A stretch of 64,000 bases of DNA from Clostridiaceae bacterium (GTDB lineage Bacteria; Bacillota; Clostridia; Oscillospirales; QAMX01), in contig JAHAYX010000001.1 in NCBI GenBank assembly GCA_018384365.1, positions 101,678-165,677 on the forward strand, given 5' to 3'. Position 1 is the first letter of the stretch. Each line of letters opens with the position of its first letter. A program made the translations under genes and the position numbers. Below are positions 10,124-53,898 of this stretch, piece after piece. A model generated the notes under the pieces. The model did not search any database. It was given only the letters and a program-made list of their open reading frames with translations, and had not been told where the DNA came from.

Positions 10124-10204
10124 ATTTTACGAAAGATGCAGCAACTGTATCCTCTTTCACAGGCAATTTGCTATACAAGGCGCTATTTTCCTTCTCGATT
10201 TTTA

Positions 10205-10233: not shown

Positions 10234-10410
10234 ATGGATGAAGGATGAGTAGAGGACTCCTTCCAAAACTCACTTGCCCGAACGGAGGTGGCGCCGATGG
10301 TTTTTGCAGCAGGATCTTCTGATCCGTCAATCCCTGTTCCGGCTGCTGCTGCAGTCCGGGAGTTTCGCACGCACAAACCCGTTTTCCTTTTCAAAAGGAG
10401 TTGAATTCTG

Positions 10411-10926
10411 ATGGATTTTCTTGCTTTATTTGCAGGCATCCCGCTTGCCGCTATCATACTCTTTGGCATCGGCGTTGTATTGCTGATCATTGAACTGTGT
10501 GTGCCCGGTTTTGGCGTGGCAGGCGTCAGCTCGCTGATCGCATTTGCTCTTGCCATTCTATTCGCAGCCGATACCTTTTTAGAAGGGCTGATCTTTACGG
10601 GCATCGTCCTTCTGGTGATCGCCATCGTCGCGGTCGTGTTCTTAGTCCTTCTTTCAAAGGGAAAGCTTTCCGCGAACTTCATCCTGAAAGCCAAAAATTC
10701 CAACGAAGAGGGATTTTCCAGCGCCGCAGCCGACCTTGCTTTTCTGGTCGGGCGTGAGGGTACCGCGCAGACGACCCTTCGTCCCTCCGGCAGAGCCATG
10801 ATCGACGGCAAAGTTTACGATGTCGTTTCAAGCGGAGATTACATTTCCTCCGGCGATCCCATCCGCGTCATCGACGTAAACAGCAACCGAATCGTCGTGG
10901 CGGAACTCGCCATGGCGAACGTATAA
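10411..10926 (+). CDS. NfeD family membrane protein
   Basis: Three N-terminal TM helices plus a C-terminal OB-like soluble domain (GRAMIDGKVYDVVSSGDYI). It lies directly upstream of floA, as in the Bacillus yqeZ-yqfA arrangement. Confidence 0.8.
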   Translation: MDFLALFAGIPLAAIILFGIGVVLLIIELCVPGFGVAGVSSLIAFALAILFAADTFLEGLIFTGIVLLVIAIVAVVFLVLLSKGKLSANFILKAKNSNEEGFSSAAADLAFLVGREGTAQTTLRPSGRAMIDGKVYDVVSSGDYISSGDPIRVIDVNSNRIVVAELAMANV

Positions 10927-10944
10927 ATATTTGGAGGATTGAAT

Positions 10945-11910
10945 ATGGATACAATCGTAATCATTGTGATACTTCTCGCGATTCTCATTTTCCTGTGCCT
11001 CTTTTTCAGCTTTGTTCCGGTCGCGCTGTGGATCAGCGCGCTCGCCGCAAACGTTCACGTCGGCATTCTCACGCTTGTTGGTATGCGCCTGCGCCGCGTG
11101 ATTCCGTCCAGGATTGTGAACCCGCTGATCAAGGCTACCAAGGCCGGCATTGAGCTTCCCATCAACAAGCTGGAAGCGCACTATCTCGCGGGCGGCAATG
11201 TGGACCGTGTGGTCAACGCCCTGATCGCCGCACAGCGCGCAGACATCCCGTTGGAATTCGAGCGTGCAGCAGCAATTGACCTTGCGGGCCGTGACGTGCT
11301 CGAGGCTGTGCAGATGACCGTCAACCCGAAGGTCATCGAGACGCCGGTTGTTGCCGCCGTGGCGAAGGACGGCATTGAAGTAAAAGCAAAAGCAAAGGTC
11401 ACGGTACGTGCCAACATCGACCGTCTTGTGGGCGGCGCCGGTGAGCAGACGATCATCGCGCGCGTCGGCGAAGGCGTTGTCACGACCATCGGTTCCGCCG
11501 AAACGCATAAAGAAGTGCTTGAAAACCCGGACCGTATCTCGCAGAACGTCCTGATGAAAGGACTGGAGTCCGGTACGGCGTTTGAGATTCTTTCCATTGA
11601 TATCGCGGACGTAGACGTGGGCCGCAACATTGGCGCACAGCTTCAGACCGATCAGGCCGAGGCAGATAAGCGCATTGCACAGGCAAAAGCCGAGGAGCGC
11701 CGCGCGATGGCTGTGGCGCGTGAGCAGGAAATGGTCGCTGCCGTGCAGGAAATGCGTGCAAAAGTCGTGGAAGCAGAGGCGGAAGTGCCAAAAGCCATGG
11801 CCGCCGCGCTGCGTGACGGAAAATTGGGCGTGATGGACTATTATAATATGAAAAATGTGATCGCAGATACGCAAATGCGCAATTCCATCGCCGCTCAACC
11901 GAATGAATAA
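10945..11910 (+). CDS. floA: Flotillin-like protein FloA (UPF0365/YqfA)
   Basis: N-terminal TM segment, then [26 protein letters not shown] and an SPFH-like body with an A/E-rich coiled coil. GGAGGA SD before ATG 10945. Confidence 0.9.
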
Positions 11911-35193: not shown

Positions 35194-35769
35194 TCAGCCG
35201 ATAATCGGTTCGATCTGACGGCCTTCGAGCGCTTCCGCCACCGTTTCCGGAATCAATTCCATCCGTGCCACAATCGAACGCGGTTTTTTCACGGGATCAT
35301 CCTGCGTCATGGGCACAAAGTAATAGCCGCGCCGGTTTAAAAGCGCGCCGATATTGGCCGCATTGGCGGCCAGCGCGTCGTTTGAGGACACCGCGATCAC
35401 GACGGGCCGTTCATTGCGCAGATGCGCCTTGGCTGCCAGCGTGACGGCGCTGTCCGCGATGCCGGACGCAAGCTTGCCGAGCGTATTTCCCGTGCAGGGC
35501 GCGATGACCAGCACATCCAGCAGCTTTTTCGGGCCGATCGGTTCCGCATCATGGATTGTTTTGATGACGGGACGGCCGCACGCACGAACCAGACGTGCCT
35601 CGAAATCCTCCGCGCGGCCAAACCGGGTGTCCGTGGCGGCGGAAACTTCACTCATAATCGGATAAACATCCATGCCTGCGACGGTCATCCCCTCCAATAC
35701 GCCGATCACCCGCTCAAACGTGCAAAATGAACCGCACAGGGCAAACCCGATGCGTGGATTTCTTATCAT
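35194..35769 (-). CDS. dpaB: Dipicolinate synthase subunit B
   Basis: Flavoprotein-like N-terminus IGFALCGSFCTF. ATGA overlap with dpaA. Start set at MIRNPRIGF. Confidence 0.85.
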   Translation of the reverse strand: MIRNPRIGFALCGSFCTFERVIGVLEGMTVAGMDVYPIMSEVSAATDTRFGRAEDFEARLVRACGRPVIKTIHDAEPIGPKKLLDVLVIAPCTGNTLGKLASGIADSAVTLAAKAHLRNERPVVIAVSSNDALAANAANIGALLNRRGYYFVPMTQDDPVKKPRSIVARMELIPETVAEALEGRQIEPIIG

Positions 35770-36587
35770 GTACACTCCTCCATAATCTGATAAAGGCTGT
35801 CGCGCACATATCCCGCCGCGGCGCGCGGCGCCGTTTTGGCGGGCAGCGACAACGCCCATTCCACCCGGCGTCCCAATTCCCGTGCCGCAGCGAAATCCAC
35901 ACCGCCGGGCTTTGATGCGAGATCCACCACCAGCGCCGTCGGTTGGAGCTTCCGCAGGGCCTCCGCGCCCAGTACCGGGGCCGGAACGGTATTGAACACC
36001 AGATCAAACTGCGTGATTTCCGCCGTAATCCCGGCTGTCTGCACGGCGGTATAGCCGTCTGCGCGGATCCAGGCAAGATCCGCCGTGCGTCTTGCGCTCA
36101 CCGTCACCCGCGCGCCGAGCAGCGCCAGCTTCCGCGCCAGCAGCTTACCGATTCTGCCGTACCCGATTACCAGGCAGGACGCGCTCTGCAGCGTGCCCTG
36201 TGTTTCCAGAATCGCCAGGCCGATGGCGCCCTCCGCGGTGGCCAACGCATTTGCGATGGCAAACTCCTCCCGTTTTGTATAGTCGAAAAGCGCCACACCG
36301 CGCATTTCCGCCATGCCGTAAAGCTCCGCCGGAATCCGTCCGCCCGCCGCCACGCTTCCGTGCCGCATATGCAAAAAAAGCCCGGATGCGGAAAGTCCCT
36401 CCGCAACCGTTCCGTCCTCCCGGCAGGCCGGCAGCGGAAACACCGTCAAATCCGCCTCCCCGATCCTCGAAAGGCCGCTTGTGTCCTCAATCAGGAAGCT
36501 GTCCTGTCCGTCCGCCGCCAGCAGTTCGGCCAGCAGCTCCTGTCTTTTGTCCCCGCCGACAACGGCGATTTTGAACCTGTCTTTCAT
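35766..36587 (-). CDS. dpaA: Dipicolinate synthase subunit A
   Basis: Dehydrogenase-like protein with the NAD-binding loop VIGYGRIGK. Paired with dpaB. Confidence 0.85.
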   Translation of the reverse strand: MKDRFKIAVVGGDKRQELLAELLAADGQDSFLIEDTSGLSRIGEADLTVFPLPACREDGTVAEGLSASGLFLHMRHGSVAAGGRIPAELYGMAEMRGVALFDYTKREEFAIANALATAEGAIGLAILETQGTLQSASCLVIGYGRIGKLLARKLALLGARVTVSARRTADLAWIRADGYTAVQTAGITAEITQFDLVFNTVPAPVLGAEALRKLQPTALVVDLASKPGGVDFAAARELGRRVEWALSLPAKTAPRAAAGYVRDSLYQIMEECT

Positions 36588-36685
36588 TCCGTTTCTCCCT
36601 CCCGATACCGTACCACATGATATTCACGTTTTGCGTTTTGGGTGCAGGAAAGCAGCGGCCTTTTCCGCCGGAATGTGCCGACAGG

Positions 36686-36714
36686 AAAAAAGCGGCCTGG
36701 ATGGCCGCTTTTTT
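36686..36714. other. Orphan terminator-like hairpin in a divergent intergenic region
   Basis: AAAAA-AGCGGCC-tggat-GGCCGCT-TTTTT, with no convergent gene on either side. Confidence 0.5.
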
Positions 36715-36717
36715 CAA

Positions 36718-36816
36718 GCACAACTTTGCGTTGAGTTGTAATTTTCGGTTGCGCAACTTTGCGTTGATGTCAATTTTGCGCGACTCAACTGCGTGTTAAT
36801 TGACAAAATTGCCGTT
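36718..36816. repeat. Three imperfect ~33-bp tandem repeats (candidate operator/iteron array)
   Basis: CAACTTTGCGTTGA is perfect at 36721-36734 and 36754-36767, with a degenerate CAACTGCGTGTTAA at 36786-36799. Also the inverted repeat TGTCAATT (36769-36776) / AATTGACA (36799-36806). Confidence 0.7.
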
Positions 36817-37098
36817 TTTCAGTACAATTTAGCCGTAATCAAAAAACGTGTCCCCAAAACGCGCGATCCATTCTGTTGAGGTACAAGAGTATGCGCAAAT
36901 ACCCGGAAGCCGGTGCAGAAAACCGGCAGAACAAGGAAACTGCTTGGAACAATCCGAAAAACACCGGCTGCGGTTCTTCCCGGAACCTGTCCCGCTGGGA
37001 ACTTATCACAAATTCACCGCCGGAGGCAGGTCTGCTGCTGTGGCGAGAAACAAAACGCTATCATCACACTTATTAAATATCTGAAGGAGGCATACAGT

Positions 37099-38610
37099 AT
37101 GTACGATTTATCTGGTCTTGGTCTTCGCATCCGTCAGCTTCGGATGCAGAAGGGCTTTACGCAAGATTCCTTTGCGAAGGAACTGGGCGTTTCCGCACAG
37201 GCGGTATCCAAATGGGAGACAGGCGCCGGCTGCCCGGACATTGCCATGCTTCCCCTGATTGCGAATATCCTGGAAACATCCATCGACTCTCTGTTCACCG
37301 ATGCTGATCCGGAGCCGGCTGCGGCAATCCGCGAGGAAAAACCGGCAGAGCCGGTTCCCGGCGAACTGGTTCCTGTCTATACGGAGGAGCCGGAGCAAGA
37401 ACAGCCCGGAGAACTGCGTGTCGTATTCGCCAGTGCAAATCTGGAGTGTCTTTCCGACATGACGCCGGAGTCGATCGACGGTCTGACCGTCCGGTTCCCG
37501 GACGGCAGCAGCGCCGACCTGAAAACCCGCACCATCGTCAATTACGGAAACTTCACAATCAAAATCCGCGAAGCTGAGCGACGCAATGTGCAGGATAAAG
37601 CGGCATTTCCGTCCAACCTCGGCGACGAAATCTTTAGAGAGGTGGACGATGTCCTGAAAAATTCCGGCATTTATGCGATGGGCGATCTCGGCGAAGCCCT
37701 TACCGAACGCATCAACCGGGCGGTGGATAAAGGCCGCGTCTATGTCGTCCCCGAAGAAGAATCGAAAAAACCCGGGGAGCTTTCCTGGAACGGTGCGGAC
37801 ATTGATTCGCTCGACATCTCCGTTTCCGGCAGCGTGAACGTCAACGTGCACGAAGGCACGCCAGGCAAGTGGAGCATCGTTGCGCGCGGGCGGCGCGAAT
37901 TTTTAAACAGCCTGCGCTGCATCGAGGACGGAAACCTTCTGAAAATCGAAACGCTCCCCTACCAATCCACACGCAGCTGGCTGCTCGGCGGTGCGAAAAA
38001 CACCATTGATATCTGCACCGGCTTTGCGCAGGGCGTTGACCTCGACGCAAAAATCAAAGGCTCCGGCAATCTCATCTGCGAGCCGGCCTTCCAGTCCAGC
38101 AGCGTATCCGTCAGCGGCTCCGGCGATGTGGAACTGGGTGACGCCGGCAATCTGACCAGTAAAATCAGCGGGTCCGGCGACATCACGTTTGTTTCCGCCC
38201 GGAATGCCAACGTCACGGTTTCCGGCTCCGGCGATATCCACGCGGGCCGTATCGAGGGCATCAGCGAGGTAAAAATCAGCGGGTCCGGCGATGCGGATCT
38301 CTCCATTGTCACGGGCAAGCTCACCTGCAACGTCGGCGGCTCGGGCGACATCAACATCGGTGAAATGGATCTGGAGAACCTCAGCGTACGCATTTCCGGT
38401 TCCGGCGACGCCGCAGTTGCCGCCGGTAAAACCGACCGGCTGGAAGTCAAGCTCGGCGGTTCCAGCGATTTCGATGCACCCTGCATCACGGTAGGCGAGC
38501 TTGTAGCCGAATTGAACGGCCCGTCCGACGCAGTGATCGGCCGCCTGCTCGGCAAATCCGTGGAGCGTATCAGCCGTATGTCCACGCTGCGCATCCTGCA
38601 GCGCGGCTGA
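37099..38610 (+). CDS. XRE-family HTH protein fused to a DUF2807/GIN-type beta-helix domain
   Basis: N-terminal HTH (LRMQKGFTQDSFAKELGVSAQAVSKWETG), an acidic/proline linker and a C-terminus with at least 7 SGSGD(I/V) rung repeats. No TM seen. Start at MYDLSG after a GAAGGAGG SD. Confidence 0.75.
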   Translation: MYDLSGLGLRIRQLRMQKGFTQDSFAKELGVSAQAVSKWETGAGCPDIAMLPLIANILETSIDSLFTDADPEPAAAIREEKPAEPVPGELVPVYTEEPEQEQPGELRVVFASANLECLSDMTPESIDGLTVRFPDGSSADLKTRTIVNYGNFTIKIREAERRNVQDKAAFPSNLGDEIFREVDDVLKNSGIYAMGDLGEALTERINRAVDKGRVYVVPEEESKKPGELSWNGADIDSLDISVSGSVNVNVHEGTPGKWSIVARGRREFLNSLRCIEDGNLLKIETLPYQSTRSWLLGGAKNTIDICTGFAQGVDLDAKIKGSGNLICEPAFQSSSVSVSGSGDVELGDAGNLTSKISGSGDITFVSARNANVTVSGSGDIHAGRIEGISEVKISGSGDADLSIVTGKLTCNVGGSGDINIGEMDLENLSVRISGSGDAAVAAGKTDRLEVKLGGSSDFDAPCITVGELVAELNGPSDAVIGRLLGKSVERISRMSTLRILQRG

Positions 38611-38739
38611 GTATTCCAAAAAGAGAAGGTTCCGGCACAATCCAAGCCAACGGACAGCCACAGCAGAATGCATTGCTGTGGTTGTTCTTGTATTTTCTGA
38701 CTCGTGATCGTATAAGGCCATGCGGCGCTGCAAAGCAGG

Positions 38740-38774
38740 ACACCCCGGGCATGCAGATGCCCGGGGTGTTTTTG
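38740..38774 (+). terminator. Rho-independent terminator after the HTH-GIN gene
   Basis: 13-bp stem ACACCCCGGGCAT/ATGCCCGGGGTGT followed by TTTTT. Confidence 0.8.
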
Positions 38775-38829
38775 CCTATTCCGCTGTTTTTTCGGACGCC
38801 GCTCGCAAAGCGCGGGCCCTTTTTTTGTT

Positions 38830-39759
38830 TTATTCTGCCACAAGGCCGGGATTTGGGGTATAGGGCGTATCAAAATTTTCATAAAACGACGACGTTGTCA
38901 CTTCGCCGTTAATCAAAAACTGCACGCGGTCAATATAGGAAAGCTCGCACAGCGAATTGACAAACGAATAGAGTTTCAGGCTGAAGCCTTCGCCGTTTTT
39001 GATGGAGAGATTCAGAAAATCCTCATTGAAATTCAGATAGCAGACGCGATTATGGATGGAAAGTCCCAGAAACTCCGTCCTGTCGGAAACGACATGGTTG
39101 ATAGTCCCGTTACTCTGCCGTCCCTCCATCAGAATGGCCACGATGCTTGCAGCCGGCTGCTCCGCATCGGAGAGCGTGCAGGTAAATTCGTCGGCAGCCA
39201 GCGTTCCCGTCTCCCGGTCGGGAAAGTAGATGCGAAAAACATAGTCGCGCAGCCGCATATAGTCCGTACTGCTGACTACATCCTCCGGCTTCAACACGGA
39301 ACGGTCGCCCTCGCCCTCCACCAATATTATCACGCCGCTAATGGGGATGTCGTTCACGCTGTTTAAGGCAAAAAGTGTGAAAGCTGTGCAATAATCCGCA
39401 ATTGTCCGGGAAATCCCCGTCAGTTCGTCATAGCTCCGGTTGAAATCCACGGTAAGAATGCCGCGTTTCGATATACTCACCGAGCGGACTGTCGTTTTTT
39501 TCGGGAAGGCGCTCACCATCGTTTCATCCTCCGGGTCCGTCATGGCAAGCTGCAGAACCAGGCTGCACAGGCGCTCATCGTCAGAGGCCGCGACCTTGCG
39601 CGTCGCATAGCAAAACACCTCTCCCTCCGTGCTGTCTGCGCAGAGGTAAGCAATGCGCACTTCTCTCAGGTCCTCCCGCTGTGCGCAGCCGGATATCCAC
39701 AACAGCAAAAAGGCCGCACAGAGGGCCACTGCGGCAAGCTGCCGCCGATCATGCATCAT
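38830..39759 (-). CDS. GerMN-domain lipoprotein (GerM-like)
   Basis: Lipobox ISGC and two GerMN-like halves (for example LTVDFNRSY..., CYLNFNEDF...). 10 nt downstream of the kinase gene. Confidence 0.7.
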   Translation of the reverse strand: MMHDRRQLAAVALCAAFLLLWISGCAQREDLREVRIAYLCADSTEGEVFCYATRKVAASDDERLCSLVLQLAMTDPEDETMVSAFPKKTTVRSVSISKRGILTVDFNRSYDELTGISRTIADYCTAFTLFALNSVNDIPISGVIILVEGEGDRSVLKPEDVVSSTDYMRLRDYVFRIYFPDRETGTLAADEFTCTLSDAEQPAASIVAILMEGRQSNGTINHVVSDRTEFLGLSIHNRVCYLNFNEDFLNLSIKNGEGFSLKLYSFVNSLCELSYIDRVQFLINGEVTTSSFYENFDTPYTPNPGLVAE

Positions 39760-44100: not shown

Positions 44101-44247
44101 TCAGGCCTTCTGCCACGAGCCGTCGCGATAGATATCGCCAATGCCGTACGCATCCGGGATCTCAACAAAGCCCATCTCCGCAGCAAAAGTCTCTCCCGCC
44201 ACAACGATGTTCACGCACACCTCATCTTGGATCACGGCATATCTCAT
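44101..44247 (-). CDS. Small hypothetical protein (48 aa), last gene of the block
   Basis: Below the ORF-track size cutoff. Reads MRYAVIQDEVCVNIVVAGETFAAEMGFVEIPDAYGIGDIYRDGSWQKA, with a GGAGG SD 15 nt after the fibre stop. No TM, so not a holin. Confidence 0.5.
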   Translation of the reverse strand: MRYAVIQDEVCVNIVVAGETFAAEMGFVEIPDAYGIGDIYRDGSWQKA

Positions 44248-44262
44248 ATGCAGCCTCCTTCC

Positions 44263-45561
44263 TTAGTCCTGCGGCAGGGCAAGCGGTGCGAACCACTCGA
44301 TCAGGGCATAGCCGTTGCCGCCATTGCCGCCGGCGTTGATAAAACTGTACTTGGCGTTGGATTTCGGCGTTGTCCGGTTGATATACGGCGCGCAGCCGCC
44401 TCCACCGCCGCAGCCATAGCCCTTTGCGCTGCCGCCCGGGGAAGCCTGTCCCGCGATATGACGGCTGAGGGAAAATTCGCCGCCGTTACCGCCGCCCATT
44501 CGTCCGGGCCCTGCTTCTATCACCAGATCCCCGCCCGACTCCGTAATCTCGTTGTCCGAAATCTTCACTGAATTGCGCAAACCAGGCAGATATCCCGCTC
44601 CGGAAGCGCCGCCCAGCAGCGTTGACTGGGAGCTGCTCAGGGTCAACGGTACATAGCAGGCAAAGGCACAGCCGCTGATGCGCTGGCTGGTTTTCAGCAG
44701 TTCCTCCGCGCCGAAGGACAGGGAAGATTCACCGCCCGCCGATGCAAATCCATCGCACGAGGAAAAGGTCGGCATCGTACTGGGGCCGCTTCCGGCGGAA
44801 TTCAGCACATATGCATTGCCGGTGCGTCCCATGCCGCCGGCCCCGATTACAAACGTATAACTTTCCTCCTGATACAGTGCAAACCGCTTTGACACTGCAA
44901 CAGACGCATCGCCGCCGGCGCCGCAGAAAAAGGTCCTTGGATAATTGGAGTTGGAATTCAGCGTGGTGTCGTACACGGCAAAGCCGCTGCCGCCGCCTCC
45001 TCCGCCTCCGAGTAAGGTGACGGTGTAAATTCCGTCATACGGCGGCGACCAGTTGCAGGATTCCGTAATCAGATACGACTCGTGAAAATCCCCCAGCCCG
45101 TCGCCCAGTTTCTCCGCCGTGACCGCTCCGTCGGCCAGCTTCTCCTGCGACACACAGCCGGGCGCCAGTTTTTCCGCCGTCACCGCCTCTGCGGCCAGTT
45201 TTGGGCCTGTCACAGCGCCGTCTTTCAGTTTTGCGGCAGAGAGGGTATTGTCCGGAATCGCGCCAACCGCCGTCTGATCAATCAGATTTTTCAGCGATGC
45301 AAGCTGCCGGGCAACGGTCTGCCCCTCAACTCCCGCAATTGCGGCAGCGCCGATACGCTGCGCGCCTGCCGTTCCCGCTTCCACGGAATTCAGCTGCTTT
45401 TGCAGCGCGTTGAGGTGATCCCGCAGCTGATCGGAAACGCCCTGGATTTGGCCGCGGATCGCCTCCTCGTTTTCCGGCTCCGTCGGGGAATACGCATGAT
45501 CGCGCAGACCCTCCGCAGGCGAAAAGGCAAAATCCTCAAATTTTATCAGTTCATTGGGCAT
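44263..45561 (-). CDS. Tail-fibre-like protein with decapeptide repeats and a glycine-rich C-terminal domain
   Basis: Start at MPNELIKFEDF (AAGGAGG SD). KLxxGAVTAE repeats at aa 111-155, then a GGGGGGGSG run and a Gly/Ser/Asn-rich C-terminus typical of phage receptor-binding fibres. Confidence 0.65.
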   Translation of the reverse strand: MPNELIKFEDFAFSPAEGLRDHAYSPTEPENEEAIRGQIQGVSDQLRDHLNALQKQLNSVEAGTAGAQRIGAAAIAGVEGQTVARQLASLKNLIDQTAVGAIPDNTLSAAKLKDGAVTGPKLAAEAVTAEKLAPGCVSQEKLADGAVTAEKLGDGLGDFHESYLITESCNWSPPYDGIYTVTLLGGGGGGGSGFAVYDTTLNSNSNYPRTFFCGAGGDASVAVSKRFALYQEESYTFVIGAGGMGRTGNAYVLNSAGSGPSTMPTFSSCDGFASAGGESSLSFGAEELLKTSQRISGCAFACYVPLTLSSSQSTLLGGASGAGYLPGLRNSVKISDNEITESGGDLVIEAGPGRMGGGNGGEFSLSRHIAGQASPGGSAKGYGCGGGGGCAPYINRTTPKSNAKYSFINAGGNGGNGYALIEWFAPLALPQD

Positions 45562-45575
45562 TGCTCCGCCCTCCT

Positions 45576-47435
45576 TTACTTTAATTGATGTGCAAGCCTG
45601 TACTGCACCACAACGTCCGCAAGAGAAAGGTCGCACGAAACGTCCCGGTTCTCCAATTCCATGGAGAAAAACAGCACACGCCTTCTCTGCGGCCGTCTGG
45701 TAAATGTCCGGAAGTACCCCGGCACATCCCATGTGAAGCTGTCCCAGCGGAACAGCCTCCAGCTGAAACTGGACACCCGGATGTTCACCGGTTCCTTCAG
45801 GGAGACATCGCTTTTCTTCTCGTCAAAGAGATAGCGGACAGCCGTATTGCCGGGAACTTCCCCGCGGCAGACAAACCAGATACGTTCCAGACGTTTATAC
45901 CAATTCGGCCGCCCAAAATCCAGGGCCGCGCTGCGCCAGTGGGCGGCTATCGGCTCGCCGAAATCACTGAACTGGCGCACAAACTGCACCACGGCGCCTG
46001 TTTTTTTGCCCGCCGTTCCCCGTCTTGCATAATAGAGTCTGTTTTGATAGGTCAAAAACGCAGCAACCGGGATGTTGTCAAAGAAATACCAGGCAAGACT
46101 GCGCAGCGCATCGTCATCCGCCGTACCGTGCAGAGGGCGCGCTGCGTTATCCCACAGATATACGTGACTTCCCACGCTCAGCCAGTAGCGTCCTTCAAAA
46201 CAGCACGCCGACGCACCGGCCAGATCAGCCTGCGGCTCTGTAAGCAGCTTCGGATTGATATTCCGGCTGACAGGCACCACATTCCGTTCATTTTCACGGC
46301 CTGTCGATGTGATCAGGCAGATGCCGTGCCCGGTGTTTGCGAACACAATGCGGTTATCGATGTTGCAGATCGTGCCCGGCATATCACAGCCCATCACAGG
46401 GCTAAGGATGTTCACCGTGAATTTCACCGTTCCGGCAGCATAGCTGCTGTCAAGCGTTGCAATCTCGTGTGCCTTAAACACTGCTAAAAGATCATACTGC
46501 CTGCCAAAGCCCGTAATCGGTTCGTCGCTGCCAACGGTAAGCCTGTTTTCCGCAGGAAAATACGTGGGCTGATATGGCTGGGAATAGTACAGCAGATTGC
46601 TGCCGTTTCCGCCAAGCATCACCCGGCTCTCGCCCGCGTGTACCATTGCATAGCGGCAGGAAAGAATGTCCCCTCCCGCCGCTGGTTCCGTTCCCGTCAG
46701 CGTAAGCACCACATTGTCAAAGCCTGCGGCCGGGGCCGCCGCAAAAGTAACCGTGCGGTTTGCGCGGTTTACGGTAAAACCGTCATTTTCCGGCATCTCC
46801 ACGCCGTTCACCTCTGCCAGAACGCTGTCCTCCGCCACGGTACAGCCATCCGGCAGCGTATAAACCGTGCCGCTTCCATCACCGGAAAAGGCGATGCGGT
46901 AACGGGCGGTCAGCGCATTGCGGCTGCCGCAGGTCACGCCCTCCACGCTGCCGGACGGAGAACGCCCTCTTACAAGAATGGGGGCATAGGGCTCTACCGG
47001 TGCAAAATCCCCGCCGTTTGAAACCAGATAATCCGCGCCGTTTAAAAAATACACCGCGTCGCCATAGCGAAAGAACGTGCCTGCGGGTGCGGTTCCGTCG
47101 ATTTCCTGCAGACTTCCGGCTTTCACAAAGCTCCCGTTTTCCAGATTCATTCTGAAAAGCCCCGTCCCGGCCTGCAGGACGGCATAGCCGGCGCCATCCA
47201 GAATTGCCGCCTGAATTTCCGATTCCTGATCCAGCGCACCCACCATGCGCTGGCCCCAGCGTTTGGTCAGCGTTCCCTCATAAAACCAGACGTTCCGGCA
47301 ATCCGGCGATTGCGTGGTGTCCAGCGTATGCGGCAAATCCGCGGCATTCAGTCCGCCGTCCATGCAGCCGTTTTTGCCGCTCAGCCGCAGCTCACAAATT
47401 TCCCGCTCCGGGAATTTGGGGGAAAAACGCAGCAT
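45576..47435 (-). CDS. Large phage-like structural protein of unknown function (619 aa; candidate tail hub/nozzle)
   Basis: Position between the capsid module and the fibre. Beta-rich sequence with no recognisable motif. Start at MLRFSPKF after an AAAGGGGTGAAG SD. Confidence 0.45.
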   Translation of the reverse strand: MLRFSPKFPEREICELRLSGKNGCMDGGLNAADLPHTLDTTQSPDCRNVWFYEGTLTKRWGQRMVGALDQESEIQAAILDGAGYAVLQAGTGLFRMNLENGSFVKAGSLQEIDGTAPAGTFFRYGDAVYFLNGADYLVSNGGDFAPVEPYAPILVRGRSPSGSVEGVTCGSRNALTARYRIAFSGDGSGTVYTLPDGCTVAEDSVLAEVNGVEMPENDGFTVNRANRTVTFAAAPAAGFDNVVLTLTGTEPAAGGDILSCRYAMVHAGESRVMLGGNGSNLLYYSQPYQPTYFPAENRLTVGSDEPITGFGRQYDLLAVFKAHEIATLDSSYAAGTVKFTVNILSPVMGCDMPGTICNIDNRIVFANTGHGICLITSTGRENERNVVPVSRNINPKLLTEPQADLAGASACCFEGRYWLSVGSHVYLWDNAARPLHGTADDDALRSLAWYFFDNIPVAAFLTYQNRLYYARRGTAGKKTGAVVQFVRQFSDFGEPIAAHWRSAALDFGRPNWYKRLERIWFVCRGEVPGNTAVRYLFDEKKSDVSLKEPVNIRVSSFSWRLFRWDSFTWDVPGYFRTFTRRPQRRRVLFFSMELENRDVSCDLSLADVVVQYRLAHQLK

Positions 47436-47439
47436 ATCT

Positions 47440-48348
47440 TCACCCCTTTTTCGTCCCAAAGAGCGTGTTTTTGATCGTAAAACCGTTTCCGCCGTCCAGT
47501 GCCGAAACCCGATCCCCGTAAAGGTTCAAAAGGAGTCGGGAGAGGTTCGGATCCTCATCCATCAGGAGCATCGCGGCAACAAAATACGGAATCGTTTCCG
47601 CCGCAGCCTCCGGCACGTCCAGACTGACGGCTTCGCCGGTGTTTTCCCCGATCGAGCGGGGATACACCGTATACAGAAGCTCCGCTGCACCGTCAAAATC
47701 CCAGGGGAAGCCGATTTTTCCCTCCTCCACCGTATAAAAAGCCGCGCCGCCGCGCATCGGGAAACGGTGGGACGGCGTTACGGACCGCACGCCGCCGAAA
47801 TCCGCCGGCAGCGCATGAAAGCGGCGCATATCCAGCACAGGGGTCTCCTCATGGCGGGGAAACTCCCGGTAAAGTCCGGCTTCCGCAATGTAAGCGTCGG
47901 ACGCCGAAAGCGTCAGTCGTATGGGCACATCCGACGGCGGCAGGCTTTCCAGCTGACCGCACACAGTTTCCAGATGTCCGCTCCCCGCGCAGGAAACGGT
48001 CAGAAGCTCCTGCCACTCGCCGCCGTTTCCCTGCTCCAGCACAGCCGTCAGTTCCCCGTCGCACAAAAGGGAAAAGGCGGCGGCGCCGCAGGCAGAAAGC
48101 TCTGCCTTGCCCGCAAGACGCCGCATCCCGCGCAGCGCATCAAGCGGACGCAGCGTATGCTGCGTATAGGTCACACGACGCAGCAGCGGACAGCGCCCGG
48201 CCAGTTCCTTCTGCGCAGTATCCACAGCGCTTTTGGCGCGGGACATATAATCCGCCTGCACGGGATCCCCGGATGCGACGCGCTCGCCGGATACGCTGTA
48301 ATAATTGATCAGTTTTTTTGTTTTCTCCAGGCACTCGCCCAATGTCAT
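47440..48348 (-). CDS. Phage-like structural protein of unknown function (302 aa; candidate head-tail adaptor)
   Basis: Position directly after the capsid gene, with an AGGAGG SD. No recognisable motif. Confidence 0.4.
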   Translation of the reverse strand: MTLGECLEKTKKLINYYSVSGERVASGDPVQADYMSRAKSAVDTAQKELAGRCPLLRRVTYTQHTLRPLDALRGMRRLAGKAELSACGAAAFSLLCDGELTAVLEQGNGGEWQELLTVSCAGSGHLETVCGQLESLPPSDVPIRLTLSASDAYIAEAGLYREFPRHEETPVLDMRRFHALPADFGGVRSVTPSHRFPMRGGAAFYTVEEGKIGFPWDFDGAAELLYTVYPRSIGENTGEAVSLDVPEAAAETIPYFVAAMLLMDEDPNLSRLLLNLYGDRVSALDGGNGFTIKNTLFGTKKG

Positions 48349-48405
48349 AACGCACCTCCTGAAAAGATTTCCCCGTCCGGAAAACCGGACGGGGAGGGAT
48401 CCCCG

Positions 48406-49371
48406 TTACGCGGGATTCGAGAAAATAATCGGCCTTGCATCCGTCCAGCCAACGCCGAAGTCCACATAAGGCACCACGCGCGCAATCAGCGGATTGTCCA
48501 GCGCGGCGCGGATCACGGTCGGGCGGCTGATATAGATCACCTTCGCGCACTCGCGCAGCAGGCTTGCGTCTGCAACAGCCCACTGCTTGGCAGTGAATCC
48601 CACGTCGCCGCCGCCGATGACCATATACTGCATCCCGCAGACGGGATTTGCGGCATTGTTGGCGCTGTCGGGGTTCAGCTGCGGCGACATTTTAGCCTGC
48701 GGACCGCAGATTTCGCGTGCCTTGCCCTCCAGTTCCGGAGAAACGAGCAGGATACCGTTTGAGAAGTAATCGGTCAGGAAGGGCAGGCCGTCCGGGGTTA
48801 CAAAGCGGTTGGCCATGATGTTGGCCTTTGTAATTGCAGCCACGGAGAGTTCGTCCGTGATCAGGTTGGAATAGGTGCCTGCCTCCGCATCGGCGATGGC
48901 CACGCCGTCCTCGTCGTGGTCGGAGGCGATGGGATGATCCGCCGCAGCCCAGGGCTTGCCGTCGCCGCCTAAAACGCTCTTGTCAAAGGCGCTGCCGAAC
49001 ATACGCAGCACGCCCATATACACGCTCATTGCCGCGGAATAGGCTGCGCGGCGGCCGGCGCTTCTTGCCTCGCCGGATTTGTCAATCTTTGCGTACTTAT
49101 AGTCGATGTCAATCGCACCCGCCTTCTGGACAGGACGGATCACCGTCACAAAGCCGCGGCGCTGGTCCATGTTGTGCAGCTCGCCCGTATACTCCGGCAG
49201 TTCGCCGTAGCCGCCCATACCTTCCACGCGATACTCCGCAGAATGGGAATCCACCTCGGAAACAATTTTGCGCAGTGCGCCAAGACGGTTGCGGTATTCA
49301 AAATCAAAAACCTTGTCGATCAGGGGATACAGATCGTTTTTCCACGCATTGTTGATATTGGTAACAGCCAT
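48406..49371 (-). CDS. Putative major capsid protein
   Basis: 321 aa, located after the portal and scaffold genes. N-terminal region MAVTNINNAW...SAEYRVEGMGGYGELPEYTGE recalls capsid families. AGGAGG SD. Confidence 0.6.
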   Translation of the reverse strand: MAVTNINNAWKNDLYPLIDKVFDFEYRNRLGALRKIVSEVDSHSAEYRVEGMGGYGELPEYTGELHNMDQRRGFVTVIRPVQKAGAIDIDYKYAKIDKSGEARSAGRRAAYSAAMSVYMGVLRMFGSAFDKSVLGGDGKPWAAADHPIASDHDEDGVAIADAEAGTYSNLITDELSVAAITKANIMANRFVTPDGLPFLTDYFSNGILLVSPELEGKAREICGPQAKMSPQLNPDSANNAANPVCGMQYMVIGGGDVGFTAKQWAVADASLLRECAKVIYISRPTVIRAALDNPLIARVVPYVDFGVGWTDARPIIFSNPA

Positions 49372-49396
49372 AATAAAACCTCCTGTACTTTTGCCG

Positions 49397-49825
49397 TCAG
49401 CCCTTCAGGGCGGCGGCATATTCCTTTGCAGTCATTGCGTATTCGGGATGTTCGCGGTTCCACTCCACCAGGAACGCATTCTGCGCATCCGTCAGACCCG
49501 CCGCGGACGCACTGGTGCGTGCGCGGCCGCTTCCCGTCGCACGGTTGGTTCGAATGCGGAGTTTTTCGGTGATTTTCTCTTCAAGAGCCGCGCAAAGTGC
49601 CAGATAATCACCGTAAATTGCAGTGAGATCCAGCGTTTTACCGCGCGCAAACAGTGCAAACTGCGCATCCTTGCATAGTTCCTCCGGATCCAGGTCCGGA
49701 TATTCCTCACGCAGTTCCTCCAGGCCCGCGGCAAGTTCCTCCTGCGGTGTCTCCGGGAAAAGCGCCATCAGTTTTTCCAGCACGCTCTGCTGCGTTTCCG
49801 TCTTTCCGGTATTCATTTCTTCCAT
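49397..49825 (-). CDS. Putative scaffolding protein
   Basis: 142 aa, acidic and helical, between the portal and capsid genes. Start at MEEMNTG after an AAAGGAG SD. Confidence 0.5.
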   Translation of the reverse strand: MEEMNTGKTETQQSVLEKLMALFPETPQEELAAGLEELREEYPDLDPEELCKDAQFALFARGKTLDLTAIYGDYLALCAALEEKITEKLRIRTNRATGSGRARTSASAAGLTDAQNAFLVEWNREHPEYAMTAKEYAAALKG

Positions 49826-49839
49826 AGCAGTCTCCTTTT

Positions 49840-51474
49840 TCACAGTTCTCCGCCGTCTGCATGGCACCCGGCGGCCTCATCCGCCTGCTGTGCCTCCTCT
49901 TCGGCAAAGATTTTCTCAAAATGTTCCTCAATCTCACCCGCTCGCTCCAGACCCAGCAGACGCAGCACATCCATCACCAGCGGATAATTCTCGCGCGTCA
50001 CCTGATGTCCCAGAAGCGAATCAATTGCGCTGAGCGTAAACGAATTACTGCGCCGCATGCCGTCGCCCGTGCTGACATAGGCGTCCACGACCGGGAAATA
50101 GCCGCGCTCGTCCAAAAACGCATTGGCGTTAAAGGTAAACACCTTCGGTTCCCCGTCGTTTTTTGCACCCAGGAAAATCACGCGGTCCTCGTCATAAAAT
50201 TCCAGCGCCGTCCAGTCGATCAGCGTATACAGCCTCGCAAACGCATTGATGCGTTCGCTCTTTTTCGGCACACTGCGGGCATCGCTGCGCTCAATCAGCT
50301 GTGACAGCGCCGCCGCGGAGGTCAGACTGGTCTGCACAATGCCGCGGTCGATGTCCAGCGTGCCCAGTGTCTCGGAAATCATCTCGCGCAGCTTCGCGGT
50401 CATCTCCAAATGCGCCGAGTTCCCGCCAAATCCGCCCAGACGGGCCACCTTTCCCATCGCGCCTGGCTTCAAACGCCACAGCGCGCCGGGACGGTTCTCC
50501 GGTTCCTCCGAGAAAGCGTCGTGCTCGGCCAGGATAATATCGCTCCCTAAAAATGCGCTCGAAAGCTGCGCCACGCTCAGCTCACGATCCACCGCATCCA
50601 CCAGCGTGAGGATCGGTTCAATGTCCCCGGTTCCCCAGAACTGATCCGGATTGGAGACACGATACTGAATCACAAACGGATAGCTGGCATTGTGCGGCGC
50701 GGTCCTGCGCCAGTATTTTTCAATGTGCCGCAGTTCACAGCCGCCTGCCTGAATACTGCAGCAGATATCCCCCTCGCCGTCGCGGTACCAGTGCTCCGTC
50801 ACGGTAATCACGTCATCCTGCGCGGTATAGGTTTCCGGTGCGGGTGTGCTGTATGGGTCAAACGTACGCGCCAGCTGCTCCGGCTCCACACCAAGGCGCT
50901 TCAGCTCCGCGCCGTACTGCCGCTCAAAGGCGCGCCGGTGCACCGGATACACAAATTGCAGATATTCGCACTCGTCCAGCCGCTTTGCGGAGGGGTCCGG
51001 GTATAAAAAGCGCGGATCCACCGGCACAACGCGGATGTCCCCGCCGCCTGCATCGTCCCAATAGACCTTCCAGGCGGAACTGCCCGTAATCAGGCAGCGG
51101 CGGTCATTCGACGCCATTTCATCCGCCACCCGGCTGTGCGCCAGAATATACCGCACCACATCCTCGCGCTGCCTGGCGCGGGCGCTGTCGAGATCATCGT
51201 CACGGCCGCGGAACTCAAATTCCGGCAGTTCGGAGGTGATCTGGCTCTCCACCTGTAAGTAGGGGTCGGGCGACATCGCGGCAATCCACGGAATTCCCGC
51301 ATCCCGGCAGCTCTCTGCAATCTCCAGCTGCGTGCGGTGACGCCCGGCGTAATATTCATAGCAAAGCTGCCAGCGTTCATCGGCCTCGGCGCGGTAACTT
51401 TTCGCATACTCGAATAAGAACCGTGCAGTTCTGACCCGCGCCTCCGGCGTTTGATAATCGTATATACAGTTCAT
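49840..51474 (-). CDS. Phage portal protein
   Basis: 544 aa directly after TerL, with an acidic C-terminal tail. Start at MNCIYDYQ after an AAGGAG SD. Confidence 0.7.
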   Translation of the reverse strand: MNCIYDYQTPEARVRTARFLFEYAKSYRAEADERWQLCYEYYAGRHRTQLEIAESCRDAGIPWIAAMSPDPYLQVESQITSELPEFEFRGRDDDLDSARARQREDVVRYILAHSRVADEMASNDRRCLITGSSAWKVYWDDAGGGDIRVVPVDPRFLYPDPSAKRLDECEYLQFVYPVHRRAFERQYGAELKRLGVEPEQLARTFDPYSTPAPETYTAQDDVITVTEHWYRDGEGDICCSIQAGGCELRHIEKYWRRTAPHNASYPFVIQYRVSNPDQFWGTGDIEPILTLVDAVDRELSVAQLSSAFLGSDIILAEHDAFSEEPENRPGALWRLKPGAMGKVARLGGFGGNSAHLEMTAKLREMISETLGTLDIDRGIVQTSLTSAAALSQLIERSDARSVPKKSERINAFARLYTLIDWTALEFYDEDRVIFLGAKNDGEPKVFTFNANAFLDERGYFPVVDAYVSTGDGMRRSNSFTLSAIDSLLGHQVTRENYPLVMDVLRLLGLERAGEIEEHFEKIFAEEEAQQADEAAGCHADGGEL

Positions 51475-51493
51475 TTCTTTCTCCTTCTCAGCT

Positions 51494-52834
51494 TCACAGG
51501 ACTGCTGCGCGCGGCCTTCGGCCGAAGCGGCCAGACAGACGCGGATCGCGCAGTTCCTCGCGTGCCGGCACAGGCCTTCCGGCCGCGAAATAGCGCAGTG
51601 CGTCCGGCGCATGGGTCAATTCATGCGGCGTTACGGCGGCGTCATTCGGATTTTTGGGATCCCGGGCCAGGGATGGCAGCGTACGGATCAAATTTTCGCA
51701 GCTGCGAAACACCGTAAGCGCGGCGCGCATCCGTTCCTGCTCATCCCGCCAGGGTCTCAGCCATTCGTGCAGGTCGTACCACCCGGCAACGCGGTCATTT
51801 TCCGCACGTGTCAGCGGCACGCCGTTTTCGGCAAAAATCGCCGCCGCAGATTTTCCCGTATCCTGCCGCCGGTTCCATAAGTCCGGCGGTGCAAAATACT
51901 GATAAATTTCCTCATCGTCCGCCGTCCGGCTGCGAATCCGCTTTGCCGCCTCCGAAACAATGAGTCCGCTCTCATAAATTTCCTTATAAACCCATGCACA
52001 GCCCTGCGTATCCATGGCAACGAAATAGGCCGCCAGCATATCGAGTCCATAGTCAAGCGTCACATAGCGCCGCCAGTGCGGCGGGATCGGGAAATTCTCG
52101 CAGGTATGCACGCTTTCGCGCCACTCCGGAAAGTACTGCCCGCCCGTCACGCCCCATTCGCCGAGCCCATACACCCGATAGCCTTCCGGGTCCAGTTCAC
52201 GTCGGCGCTCCATTCTGGCATGGAAACCGGGATCTATGAAGCGGTTGTCAAGGTAAGTCGAATGATTTGTCAGCACGTCCGGGCTTTTCCGGTCAAAAAA
52301 GCGCGCTTTCATCCAGTGATTCGCGCTGACAGGGTTAAAGGTCAGCTTGATCTGATAAAACAGCCCTTCCGGCAGACGCCCGCGCAGTCGGTCGTCGATG
52401 ATTTCAAAATCACCGGCTTCCAGCTCCGTGGCCTCCTCAATCCAGACGTCCGTCAGCTTTCCGGAGGGAAATGTTATGGACTTCAGCCGCTCGCGCTGCC
52501 GGTCGTCCGACACGCCGCGGAACAGCACGGCGTTCCCGTTGATCCGGCACCGCATGGAAAGCGGCGCCAGCGTGGAATCCCAGAGATCGGCCACACCGAG
52601 ACGGTTCACCGCCGCCGAAAGCTCCGCGAAGGTGCTCGCCCGGTTCGACTCCTCGGTTTTGCGCACGCACAGAAGGTTGCGTCCCGGCTCTGTCATCAGC
52701 CGCAGGACGTACATCTGCGCGGTATCCATGGATTTTCCCGAACCTGCCGAACCGCGCAGGGCCACATAGCGGCATTGGGACTCATGCACGGGACGAAACA
52801 CCGGATTTGCCTCCAGCGTCACGCGCCGTATCAT
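51494..52834 (-). CDS. Terminase large subunit (PBSX/XtmB-like)
   Basis: Walker A LRGSAGSGKS, Walker B-like DVWIEEATE and a C-terminal nuclease region (VTLDYGLDM...). Confidence 0.85.
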   Translation of the reverse strand: MIRRVTLEANPVFRPVHESQCRYVALRGSAGSGKSMDTAQMYVLRLMTEPGRNLLCVRKTEESNRASTFAELSAAVNRLGVADLWDSTLAPLSMRCRINGNAVLFRGVSDDRQRERLKSITFPSGKLTDVWIEEATELEAGDFEIIDDRLRGRLPEGLFYQIKLTFNPVSANHWMKARFFDRKSPDVLTNHSTYLDNRFIDPGFHARMERRRELDPEGYRVYGLGEWGVTGGQYFPEWRESVHTCENFPIPPHWRRYVTLDYGLDMLAAYFVAMDTQGCAWVYKEIYESGLIVSEAAKRIRSRTADDEEIYQYFAPPDLWNRRQDTGKSAAAIFAENGVPLTRAENDRVAGWYDLHEWLRPWRDEQERMRAALTVFRSCENLIRTLPSLARDPKNPNDAAVTPHELTHAPDALRYFAAGRPVPAREELRDPRLSGRFGRRPRAAVL

Positions 52835-53109
52835 GCCGTTCCCCCGTCCCCGTAATCGATCCGCACTTCAATCGCCGTCACTGCATCGTCCGCCGCCTGC
52901 GGTACGGCCTTCGCCAGCAGTTCCGACGCTTTCAGGCGGTCTTTCATGTCCGCGCCATCGTCCTCCACAATCCCGCTCCAGAAGGCGGTCACCAGCCGCC
53001 GCGGATCGCGGCTGCGCCGCCTTTTGCCGGGCGGCTTTTTCTCACTCAAGGGGCATCTCTCCTTTCCTCCCAAAACCCTGGCGGCGCGTCCGCCGCCTGC
53101 ATTCGCCAT
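52831..53109 (-). CDS. Terminase small subunit-like fragment (C-terminal region only, 72-92 aa)
   Basis: Carries MKDRLKASELLAKA, resembling the conserved C-terminal motif of Firmicute phage TerS proteins. ATGA overlap with TerL. ATG 53109 lacks an SD, while an in-frame TTG at about 53049 follows GGGAGGAAAGGAGAG. Confidence 0.5.
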   Translation of the reverse strand: MANAGGGRAARVLGGKERCPLSEKKPPGKRRRSRDPRRLVTAFWSGIVEDDGADMKDRLKASELLAKAVPQAADDAVTAIEVRIDYGDGGTA

Positions 53110-53135
53110 ACGCTTGACTGGTCTTAGCATACCAA

Positions 53136-53166
53136 CAAAAAAAGAGAAAGTCGTCCCGACTTTCTC
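53136..53166 (-). terminator. Terminator-like hairpin 27 nt upstream of the first gene of the phage-like block
   Basis: Stem GAGAAAGTCG/CGACTTTCTC followed by TTTTTTTG on the minus strand. Confidence 0.7.
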
Positions 53167-53240
53167 CCACGTTTTTCCCAGACACCCGCACCGCCCCGAC
53201 GGAAAATCCTCCCACCCCGTCCTTACGGGCAAACAGTTAC

Positions 53241-53280: not shown

Positions 53281-53289
53281 CATGAATAT

Positions 53290-53898
53290 TCACGGTTTTC
53301 CTGCCGCACTGCGCCAGAAATCCACATAGTTTCTGATGGGATCATCACTCCAGACATGTACCTCGACATATCTTTCCGGGCCAAATTTGCCGTCATCGTT
53401 CCAGTTCTGCGGCAAGCCGTATTTGTCGATGATTTTCAGAATTTCATCAAATGTATAGAGCTTTCTGCGGTATTCCTTCCAATCGTCTGCTCTTGGCCGC
53501 GGACTGAAGGTCGGATGCGAATCCCCATACGTAAAGGAAACAGTTTTCAGGTCAAATTCCTCCGCCGGAATCCGGAGATACGCACAGTTTTCAAACCAGG
53601 TACTCAGCCAAGGGCTGTGTTCCACAACCATATAATGCGGAGACTTGCGCTGTACAACGCCGCCTTTTTTCAAAAACTCCGTCCGAAGGATTTCTTCGTA
53701 GTACAGGCGGTCCTCCATATAGGTATCGTGCCGTTTTGCACATTGCACCCCGGGTTTTTCCCGTTTGATCTTTTGCAGAAGTGCTTTCGCCTCGTGAAGC
53801 GGCAGATCGCACAGGTTTACAAACGGTCCTACCGTGCTGTCGAAATAATGATAGAAAACCAAGCGCCATCTCACATCCTTTCCGCACAAACGGCGCAC
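53290..53898 (-). CDS. Hypothetical protein (about 200 aa)
   Basis: ORF with protein-like composition and no motif recognised. Start codon uncertain (GTG at 53898). Confidence 0.5.
   Translation of the reverse strand: MRRLCGKDVRWRLVFYHYFDSTVGPFVNLCDLPLHEAKALLQKIKREKPGVQCAKRHDTYMEDRLYYEEILRTEFLKKGGVVQRKSPHYMVVEHSPWLSTWFENCAYLRIPAEEFDLKTVSFTYGDSHPTFSPRPRADDWKEYRRKLYTFDEILKIIDKYGLPQNWNDDGKFGPERYVEVHVWSDDPIRNYVDFWRSAAGKP

Follow-up and report, generated by a model that had tools for sequence, protein, structure and literature searches.

The 64,000-nucleotide stretch of contig JAHAYX010000001.1 (assembly GCA_018384365.1, Clostridiaceae bacterium), referred to here as the window, carries a nine-gene cluster of about 9 kb on its minus strand (44101..53049). 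The cluster is headed by a short open reading frame (ORF), mini-terS, which lies directly upstream of terL, the gene of a large terminase of the PBSX/Terminase_3 type. An earlier note had described this ORF as the remnant of a small terminase (TerS) lacking its N-terminal DNA-recognition half. TerL matches Pfam Terminase_3 (5.6e-44), PHROG 3717 (9.3e-73) and the NCBIfam model TIGR01547 'PBSX family' (5.9e-40), and its translation contains a Walker A motif (GSAGSGKS, residues 28-35) and a Walker B motif (DVWIEE, residues 129-134). The other cluster genes were identified by PHROG and Pfam matches. An integrase, a repressor, replication genes, tail tube or sheath genes, a holin and an endolysin were not found in the cluster. 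Coordinates are collected in Table 1.

Table 1. Positions of mini-terS, its signals, the cluster genes and features of compared loci (window coordinates unless a locus is named)
Feature	Coordinates	Strand	Remarks
mini-terS	52831..53049	minus	72 aa; TTG start 53049..53047, TGA stop 52833..52831
Shine-Dalgarno-like GGGAGGAAAGGAGAG	53057..53071	minus	ends 7 nt 5' of the mini-terS TTG; read from sequence
ATGA overlap	52831..52834	minus	mini-terS stop (52833..52831) with terL start (52834..52832)
terL	51494..52834	minus	446 aa, large terminase
P22-like portal	49840..51474	minus	544 aa
Scaffold-like protein	49397..49825	minus	142 aa
Major capsid protein	48406..49371	minus	321 aa
302-aa protein	47440..48348	minus
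Virion structural protein	45576..47435	minus	619 aa
Gly-rich tail-fibre-like protein	44263..45561	minus	432 aa
Small ORF	44101..44247	minus	48 aa
GC-rich hairpin GGCGGCG-GACG-CGCCGCC	53080..53097	minus	predicted 5' leader, just 5' of the ribosome-binding site
Conserved intergenic stretch	53080..53168	minus	5' of mini-terS
TGGTATGCT	53126..53134	minus	extended -10-like
Inverted repeat GAGAAAGTCG-GGA-CGACTTTCTC with T-run	53132..53168	minus	perfect 10-bp repeat, terminator-like
202-aa ORF	53290..53898	minus	between GH4 gene and cluster
Dipicolinate synthase-like and GerM-like genes	35194..39759		translations read by eye
Extra gene, L001	13692..14360		between scaffold-like and capsid genes
Extra gene, L093	13683..14333		between scaffold-like and capsid genes
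terS and terL, L091	10001..11660		mini-TerS of 81 aa
mini-TerS and truncated TerL, L098	3174..4359		89 aa and 317 aa
L097 stretches concerned	1436..3999 and 10001..10960		larger phage-like contig

Reading frame and selection on mini-terS

Three in-frame start codons are available to the ORF: an ATG at 53283 (150 aa), an ATG at 53109 (92 aa) and the TTG at 53049 (72 aa). A Shine-Dalgarno-like sequence precedes the TTG, and its core GGAAAGGAGAG is retained by the closest orthologous loci. At the codon that is TTG in the window, the closest orthologues have ATG, and their proteins begin with MSEKKP or MSEKTP. Moreover, in-frame stop codons lie directly 5' of the start codon in two orthologous loci (L001 and L006), which rules out the 92-aa version as the conserved product. 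The 150-aa ORF was likewise discarded, as it would span a terminator-like hairpin and its T-run (53168..53132). Because the orthologues start at the same codon and two of them have upstream stops, the 72-aa reading is correct; the earlier note had already considered it the more probable one on account of the strong Shine-Dalgarno sequence. The coupling to terL through an ATGA overlap, also pointed out there, was read directly in the window, and the gene calls in L004, L005, L093-L095 and L099 overlap by the same 4 nt. Such an overlap is, to judge from the sequence, a signature of translational coupling between mini-terS and terL.

A collection of 5.8 billion proteins contained 12 close homologues of 60-99 aa, mostly called as 68-74 aa. 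When the window was compared with four syntenic orthologues, the ratio of nonsynonymous to synonymous substitution rates (dN/dS) of mini-terS was 0.09-0.18, about 0.11, with dN of 0.08-0.16 and dS of 0.7-1.1 or more; the range 0.7-1.1 applies to the closer orthologues among the four. As dN/dS is low and both the ribosome-binding site and the terL overlap are conserved, mini-terS appears to be an expressed, constrained gene under purifying selection and not a decaying fragment. The term 'remnant' was therefore misleading for an intact gene, one of a recurrent class of genes that are short by nature.

Descent from a Terminase_2 small terminase and absence of the helix-turn-helix

Direct searches with the 72-, 92- and 150-aa versions gave no match in Pfam, PHROG or NCBIfam even at E <= 10, and mini-TerS stays below every Pfam threshold, including the curated cut-off of Terminase_2 (PF03592). 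A family profile built from the nine closest family members, however, retrieved 80 proteins at E <= 1e-3 from 1.84 billion representative proteins, and Pfam Terminase_2 was recognised in 41 of the 81 scanned sequences (the window ORF and the 80 profile matches). Thus the link to Terminase_2 is reached through the family profile and not by a direct Pfam search. In the Terminase_2 relatives the match lies at residues ~70-120, after a helix-turn-helix (HTH) region at the N-terminus, of the form LTxKQxxFVxxYxGNATxAAxxAGYS. Alignment of the window family with 31 full-length relatives by hhalign gave a probability of 98.9% (E 2.8e-17), with window residues 17-49 corresponding to full-length residues 65-97, which identifies the ORF as derived from a small terminase.

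The profile of the full-length relatives was also compared with structures in the PDB. It matched the phage SF6 small terminase (3ZQP, E 8e-28), the isolated HTH domain of the same protein (4ZC3 and 2CMP, E 1.4e-14 and 1.2e-12) and its crystallised oligomerisation core (3ZQM, E 6.8e-6), as well as the small terminases of NV1 and PaP3 (7JOQ and 6W7T, E 1.2e-4 and 0.036). A broader mini-TerS profile by itself also had 3ZQP as its best PDB match (E 0.027); the close-family profile gave a single chance match, to a protease.

The similarity falls on the most conserved core motif of TerS, FW..M.D....MKDRLKASELLGK. Mini-TerS carries DMKDRLKASELLAKA at residues 34-48, and MKDRLKASELL is invariant in 13/13 aligned family members, in agreement with the FW...KDRLKAxELLGK motif of the Terminase_2 central core. 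The earlier note had recognised both the motif and a basic tract, and had assigned the former to the C-terminal part of small terminases that mediates oligomerisation and contacts TerL. The assignment to the oligomerisation core holds; the motif belongs to the central hairpin and not to the extreme C-terminus. Further support for the relationship is provided by a full-length TerS of Dorea sp. D27 (149 aa), which is ATGA-coupled to a TerL 45% identical to that of the window; among TerLs with a full-length TerS partner this one is closest to the window TerL. The Dorea TerS ends with ...KDRLKAAELLGK...ISIDYGGDDTE. By BLASTP, window residues 36-67 align with its residues 109-144 at 47% identity, including the C-terminal IDYG, so that the mini-TerS end ..RIDYGDGG is common to the full-length TerS of the Dorea prophage. 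The position of mini-terS, directly upstream of and coupled to a Terminase_3 terL, is the canonical position of terS. By homology mini-TerS belongs with Terminase_2, but because it has no HTH and scores below threshold we do not class it as an ordinary representative.

The missing N-terminal HTH, another claim of the earlier note, was confirmed with hidden Markov models (HMMs). When the six reading frames of the 64-kb window were searched with an HMM of full-length TerS, this ORF was the sole match (E 4e-14), and it aligned with HMM positions 73-109 of 142 only. An HMM of the N-terminal HTH region found no match in the same six frames (best E 3.7). The window therefore contains no upstream HTH relic, no detached HTH gene and no second, full-length terS. 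The HTH region was also without a match in any frame of four further loci that encode short forms (L090, L091, L092 and L065).

The layout of mini-TerS comprises a basic tail (residues 1-15), a helix (16-29), a second helix (35-48, MKDRLKASELLAKA), a linker, a predicted strand VTAIEVRIDY and a short Gly/acidic tail. Nine Arg/Lys are found in 18 residues of the basic tail, and the net charge over the first 22 residues is +7. An AlphaFold2 (AF2) monomer model from a 28-sequence alignment showed both helices and reached a predicted local distance difference test score (pLDDT) of 74, with about 94 over residues 21-40 of the hairpin; a model from a 9-sequence alignment was poor (pLDDT 61). In the PaP3 TerS, an HTH at the N-terminus is followed by a hairpin of two helices, a beta-strand from which a nonameric barrel is built and an acidic tail; hairpin and strand together form its oligomerisation core (PMC7672466). 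Mini-TerS maps onto the second and third of these elements, the hairpin followed by the strand.

The cluster at its chromosomal site and short forms elsewhere

On one side the cluster is flanked by genes for a GH4 glycosidase and PolA, on the other by secG and a PBP5-type carboxypeptidase gene. In all the related genomes that were recovered (the window and L001, L002, L006-L008, L093-L095 and L099) its neighbours are polA and GH4, and carriers include Ca. Allobutyricicoccus pentlandensis and several metagenome-assembled genomes of Clostridia/Eubacteriales. The far flank varies, with FeoA in place of SecG, and the gene order is the same in L001, L002, L093 and L099. In L008, the most distant of the syntenic genomes, identity to the window is 64% for PolA, 80% for GH4, 77% for TerL, 65% for the portal and 82% for the capsid protein; in closer genomes the capsid protein is 96% identical, compared with 83-88% for PolA. 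Every cluster gene shows a low dN/dS, from 0.015 for the capsid gene (0.015-0.024) to 0.19, with 0.05-0.07 for terL, while dS is similar to that of polA and GH4. The strong constraint on the ATPase motifs of TerL implies, as far as sequence can tell, real DNA translocation. Owing to the fixed site, the divergence at host rates and the purifying selection across the cluster, we regard it as a domesticated, vertically inherited element, apparently neither mobile nor a decaying prophage. It encodes structural and packaging proteins, has no genes for replication, integration or lysogeny, and is inherited vertically at a fixed site, as is characteristic of gene transfer agents (GTAs).

The strongly conserved intergenic stretch 5' of mini-terS contains TGGTATGCT, which is invariant in 6/6 aligned orthologous loci and is a putative promoter element. 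It also contains the terminator-like inverted repeat GAGAAAGTCG-GGA-CGACTTTCTC, whose overlap with the -35 position would also suit an operator. L002 has no 202-aa ORF upstream and still conserves the repeat; as it persists where there is no upstream gene to terminate, it may be an operator or attenuator that controls the cluster. The GC-rich leader hairpin is conserved in the four closest loci. The 202-aa ORF itself matches no family in Pfam, PHROG or NCBIfam. It is present in L001 (81% identity) and absent in L002, L007 and L093, and is hence not part of the conserved cluster.

Several further observations concern the cluster genes and the host. The 432-aa protein has N-terminal repeats of the xxKLxxGAVTxEKL type, which match tail-fibre PHROGs, and a glycine-rich C-terminal domain (Pfam Gly_rich_2). 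Its gene evolves fastest within the cluster (dN/dS 0.15-0.19), as expected of a receptor-binding protein. Several orthologous clusters (L001, L006, L008 and L093) have, between the scaffold-like and capsid genes, an extra gene for a protein of 216-222 aa, which is absent from the window, L002 and L007. Relatives of the capsid protein are numerous (776 proteins at E <= 1e-5, many in Clostridia), among them those from Dehalobacter sp. TeCB1 (64% identity) and Clostridium lundense (55%). A tblastn search of 50,697 deposited phage records with the 72-aa protein and the capsid protein gave no match. The nearest phage TerLs, from Dorea phage DO134P1 and the C. difficile phages phiMMP01 and phiC2, are 43-48% identical and have small-terminase genes annotated alongside. 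A larger phage-like contig, L097, encodes a capsid protein 60% identical to that of the window together with an unrelated 154-aa HTH TerS and a 586-aa TerL from a different family, which shows that capsid and terminase modules are exchanged in mosaic fashion. Elsewhere in the window, translations resemble dipicolinate synthase subunits A and B and a GerM-like lipoprotein, which would make the host an endospore-forming member of the Clostridia.

In viral contigs short forms are rare: 76 of the 80 loci with relatives of the core motif also encode the HTH region at the N-terminus. Of the four exceptions, L010 is a 6-kb contig with another copy of the same cluster family (TerL 70%, capsid 80%), L065 has its short form at the very end of a viral contig of 25 kb, and L026 and L066 encode long proteins with other N-termini. 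Protein collections hold many HTH-less forms of 52-93 aa, none of them with a Pfam match and almost none named. In other lineages such forms adjoin terL among housekeeping genes. In L090, a mini-TerS of 77 aa follows recA and heads a 10-gene cluster. In L091, terS and terL stand alone between a DUF1256 (YyaC-like) gene and a gene for a B12-binding domain, followed by alanine racemase; no further phage-like genes are nearby, and this pair would be either a final vestige or a terminase that works for structural genes located elsewhere. The 93-aa mini-TerS of L092 heads a podovirus-like module with a P22-type portal, and the short form of L098 is followed by cell-wall hydrolase genes (Peptidase_M15_3, LysM/M23).

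The TerLs of L090, L091 and L092 form a group of their own (55-62% identical mutually) and are 37-42% identical to the window TerL in the ATPase half only, while the window TerL is nearer to that of Dorea (45-46% over about 390 aa). Accordingly, the mini-TerS of L090 aligns end to end with the full-length TerS P0040 (51% over 73 aa), compared with 49% over 37 aa for the window protein. As the grouping of the TerLs and the alignments of the small proteins agree, the HTH has been lost at least twice. Repeated loss points to selection for the short form in such chromosomal clusters. With at least two origins beside different TerL lineages, and given the near absence of short forms from viral contigs, the distribution suggests that the HTH loss was selected when a phage head module was domesticated. 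MT836592.1 (L096, 9,588 bp), a candidate for a packaged copy of such a cluster, was rejected since its TerS is a full-length protein of 168 aa with an HTH, and the element is a different one. This unannotated 'Bacteriophage sp.' record from human faeces is close in size to the window cluster, its TerS gene overlaps terL, and the C-terminal half of its TerL resembles the window TerL (39% over 97% of the query).

Proposed packaging without a pac site and comparison with known systems

We favour, as the probable though by no means certain explanation, that the ORF encodes a functional, naturally short GTA-type small terminase that packages DNA without a pac site. Mini-terS would be translated from the TTG codon in translational coupling with terL. 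From its core we infer a protein that probably forms a ring and recruits and regulates TerL. Lacking an HTH, it would contact DNA only non-specifically, by charge contacts through the Arg/Lys-rich tail. Packaging would start without a pac site and proceed by headful filling of small podovirus-like capsids with arbitrary host DNA. If the mechanism is of this kind, the nine-gene cluster would be a GTA-like element.

Some observations weigh against this explanation. The assignment as a TerS is transitive; it rests on profile homology over about 35-55 residues and has no direct family match behind it. The AF2 model is confident for the hairpin only and does not include the strand, and a Foldseek search against the PDB returned nothing at E <= 0.001, since a two-helix hairpin is too generic. 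The strongly basic tail, to which DNA contact is ascribed, is specific to the polA-linked cluster family and not common to all short forms. An HTH protein could act in trans from elsewhere, the search having covered the 64-kb window. Neither lysis genes nor a second operon turned up in the window. Finally, L098, from one other lineage, with its mini-TerS beside a truncated TerL, indicates that some copies decay.

This last case also speaks for a decaying prophage remnant, in which terS was truncated by a deletion and no longer functions or is being lost, and the cluster is cryptic and has no current role. The cluster does consist of the late part of a phage only, head and short tail, devoid of replication, lysogeny and lysis genes, and L091 retains no more than terS and terL. 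Yet all cluster genes, mini-terS among them, are under purifying selection at dS of about 1, and the capsid protein is more conserved than PolA both in the closer genomes and in L008 (82% vs 64%). Position and gene order hold across genomes in which PolA has diverged that far, and start codon, ribosome-binding site and terL overlap are all conserved. We therefore consider decay very improbable. An alternative in which sequence-specific packaging is kept takes mini-TerS as the ring and TerL-binding half of a split small terminase; a separate HTH protein from elsewhere in the genome, or the basic tail, would read pac, and the cluster would be a phage, a satellite or a capsid-forming island that packages its own or defined DNA. 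The 64 kb searched is a portion of the genome, the short form of L065 lies at a contig edge where an upstream HTH gene could be cut off, and N-terminally deleted TerS proteins of SF6 and SPP1 retain some DNA binding (cited in PMC6854486). However, the HTH region had no match in the window or in the four other loci searched, L065 included, and where viral-contig relatives have an HTH it is fused, not split. The cluster has no integrase or replication module, and a single chromosomal position with divergence at the rates of host genes is unlike a mobile satellite. This alternative is unlikely, although less so than decay.

The ORF might instead be a TerL-associated factor, such as a regulator or chaperone, with a local likeness to TerS, or the capsids might serve a purpose other than gene transfer; the missing HTH would then be uninformative about packaging specificity. 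In favour are the lack of any curated family model that recognises the ORF, the shortness of the confident hhalign stretch, about 33 columns, and the lack of linked lysis genes, which leaves particle release unexplained. On the other hand, the likeness is to the most conserved core of TerS and reaches the C-terminus of a bona fide full-length TerS, the gene occupies the canonical terS position in translational coupling with terL, and the ATPase motifs of TerL are strongly constrained. We give such a role a small chance, slightly below that of sequence-specific packaging, and retain the naturally short, GTA-type small terminase as our explanation.

GTAs are hard to find because they resemble defective prophages. 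To our knowledge there is no sequence model for small terminases without a DNA-binding domain, and annotation pipelines skip them. The present case contributes a ~70-residue family, traced by profile homology to the Terminase_2 oligomerisation core and under purifying selection, together with its setting in a compact capsid cluster that is inherited vertically beside polA in a group of uncultured gut Clostridia. A mini-TerS profile could flag GTA-like elements in Clostridia genomes, and could help to explain the abundant random packaging of host DNA recently measured in gut viromes. More speculatively, and with the odds rather against so broad a claim, an HTH-less, Terminase_2-derived mini-TerS might be a convergent, searchable signature of widespread, unannotated, vertically inherited podovirus-like GTA elements across Clostridia, distinct from the FpGTA of Faecalibacterium and with the window cluster as one family. 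In gut Oscillospiraceae, Christensenellaceae and related taxa, short pieces of host DNA are packaged in a GTA-like way that has been assigned to no gene cluster, and such elements could account for it.

Among known systems, the G1P small terminase of SF6/SPP1 (Terminase_2; 3ZQP, 3ZQM, 2CMP) shares with the window protein a homologous hairpin core with ..KDR(L/I)KA.ELLGK.., followed by a strand-forming segment. G1P differs in its N-terminal HTH, by which pac is recognised; the first residue of the window protein falls near the beginning of the G1P core construct that was crystallised. The PBSX element of Bacillus subtilis (XtmA/XtmB) has a TerL of the same PBSX family (TIGR01547) as the window. 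PBSX forms a contractile-tailed particle, its gene set is large and its small terminase is of full size. The window cluster differs in that it comprises nine genes, encodes a P22-like portal and lacks genes for a tail tube or sheath. PBSX itself is phage-like, resides in the chromosome of a Gram-positive bacterium and packages DNA of its host (PMC12946183).

The concept of a small terminase without a DNA-binding domain is already known from the Rhodobacter GTA (RcGTA) and from FpGTA, so that the new element here is the unannotated sequence family. RcGTA gp1 (rcc01682) was the first small terminase reported from a GTA, and it lacks a DNA-binding domain (Sherlock, Leong & Fogg 2019, PMC6854486). 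Experimentally it is essential, binds TerL and binds DNA weakly and non-specifically, and loss of the DNA-binding domain was proposed as the defining trait of GTA-type small terminases (PMC6854486). Gp1 was proposed to have kept the regulation of TerL while losing sequence specificity. The earlier note had stated that this loss underlies non-specific packaging of host DNA by RcGTA; published work supports the idea as a hypothesis, backed by the weak, non-specific binding in vitro, and not as a demonstrated mechanism. Like the window protein, gp1 is small, is encoded directly upstream of terL, begins with its oligomerisation domain (a coiled-coil in gp1) and has no DNA-binding domain. By this architecture and context mini-TerS classes, at the level of sequence, as a GTA-type small terminase. 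The two differ in lineage, gp1 having been modelled on the TerS of the T4-like phage 44RR and belonging to an alphaproteobacterial, siphovirus-like GTA, whereas the window protein is known from sequence alone.

The closest counterpart in architecture is FpGTA I of Faecalibacterium prausnitzii, a chromosomal operon of ~10 kb that encodes a TerS without a DNA-binding domain, TerL, portal, scaffold, capsid and short-tail proteins and yields particles of ~40 nm with host DNA fragments of 8.4-8.9 kb (Nat Commun 2026, PMC12946183). Both systems occur in gut Clostridia, with the same architecture and a similar size and without replication genes, and the FpGTA TerS, too, was missed by annotation programs (PMC12946183). 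At NCBI the FpGTA proteins are named as an N4-gp56 family capsid, a 'Terminase-like family' TerL and a Prp-like protein (supplementary file 4). The NCBIfam N4-gp56 and Prp models had no match in the window cluster or in L090. Compared by annotation names and not by sequences, the window cluster differs in a capsid protein without an NCBIfam match, a TerL of the PBSX/Terminase_3 type and the absence of a Prp-like gene. The FpGTA operon was found in Faecalibacterium and not in Gemmiger or Subdoligranulum (PMC12946183). This distribution, together with the differing annotations, suggests that the window cluster and FpGTA are probably separate lineages.

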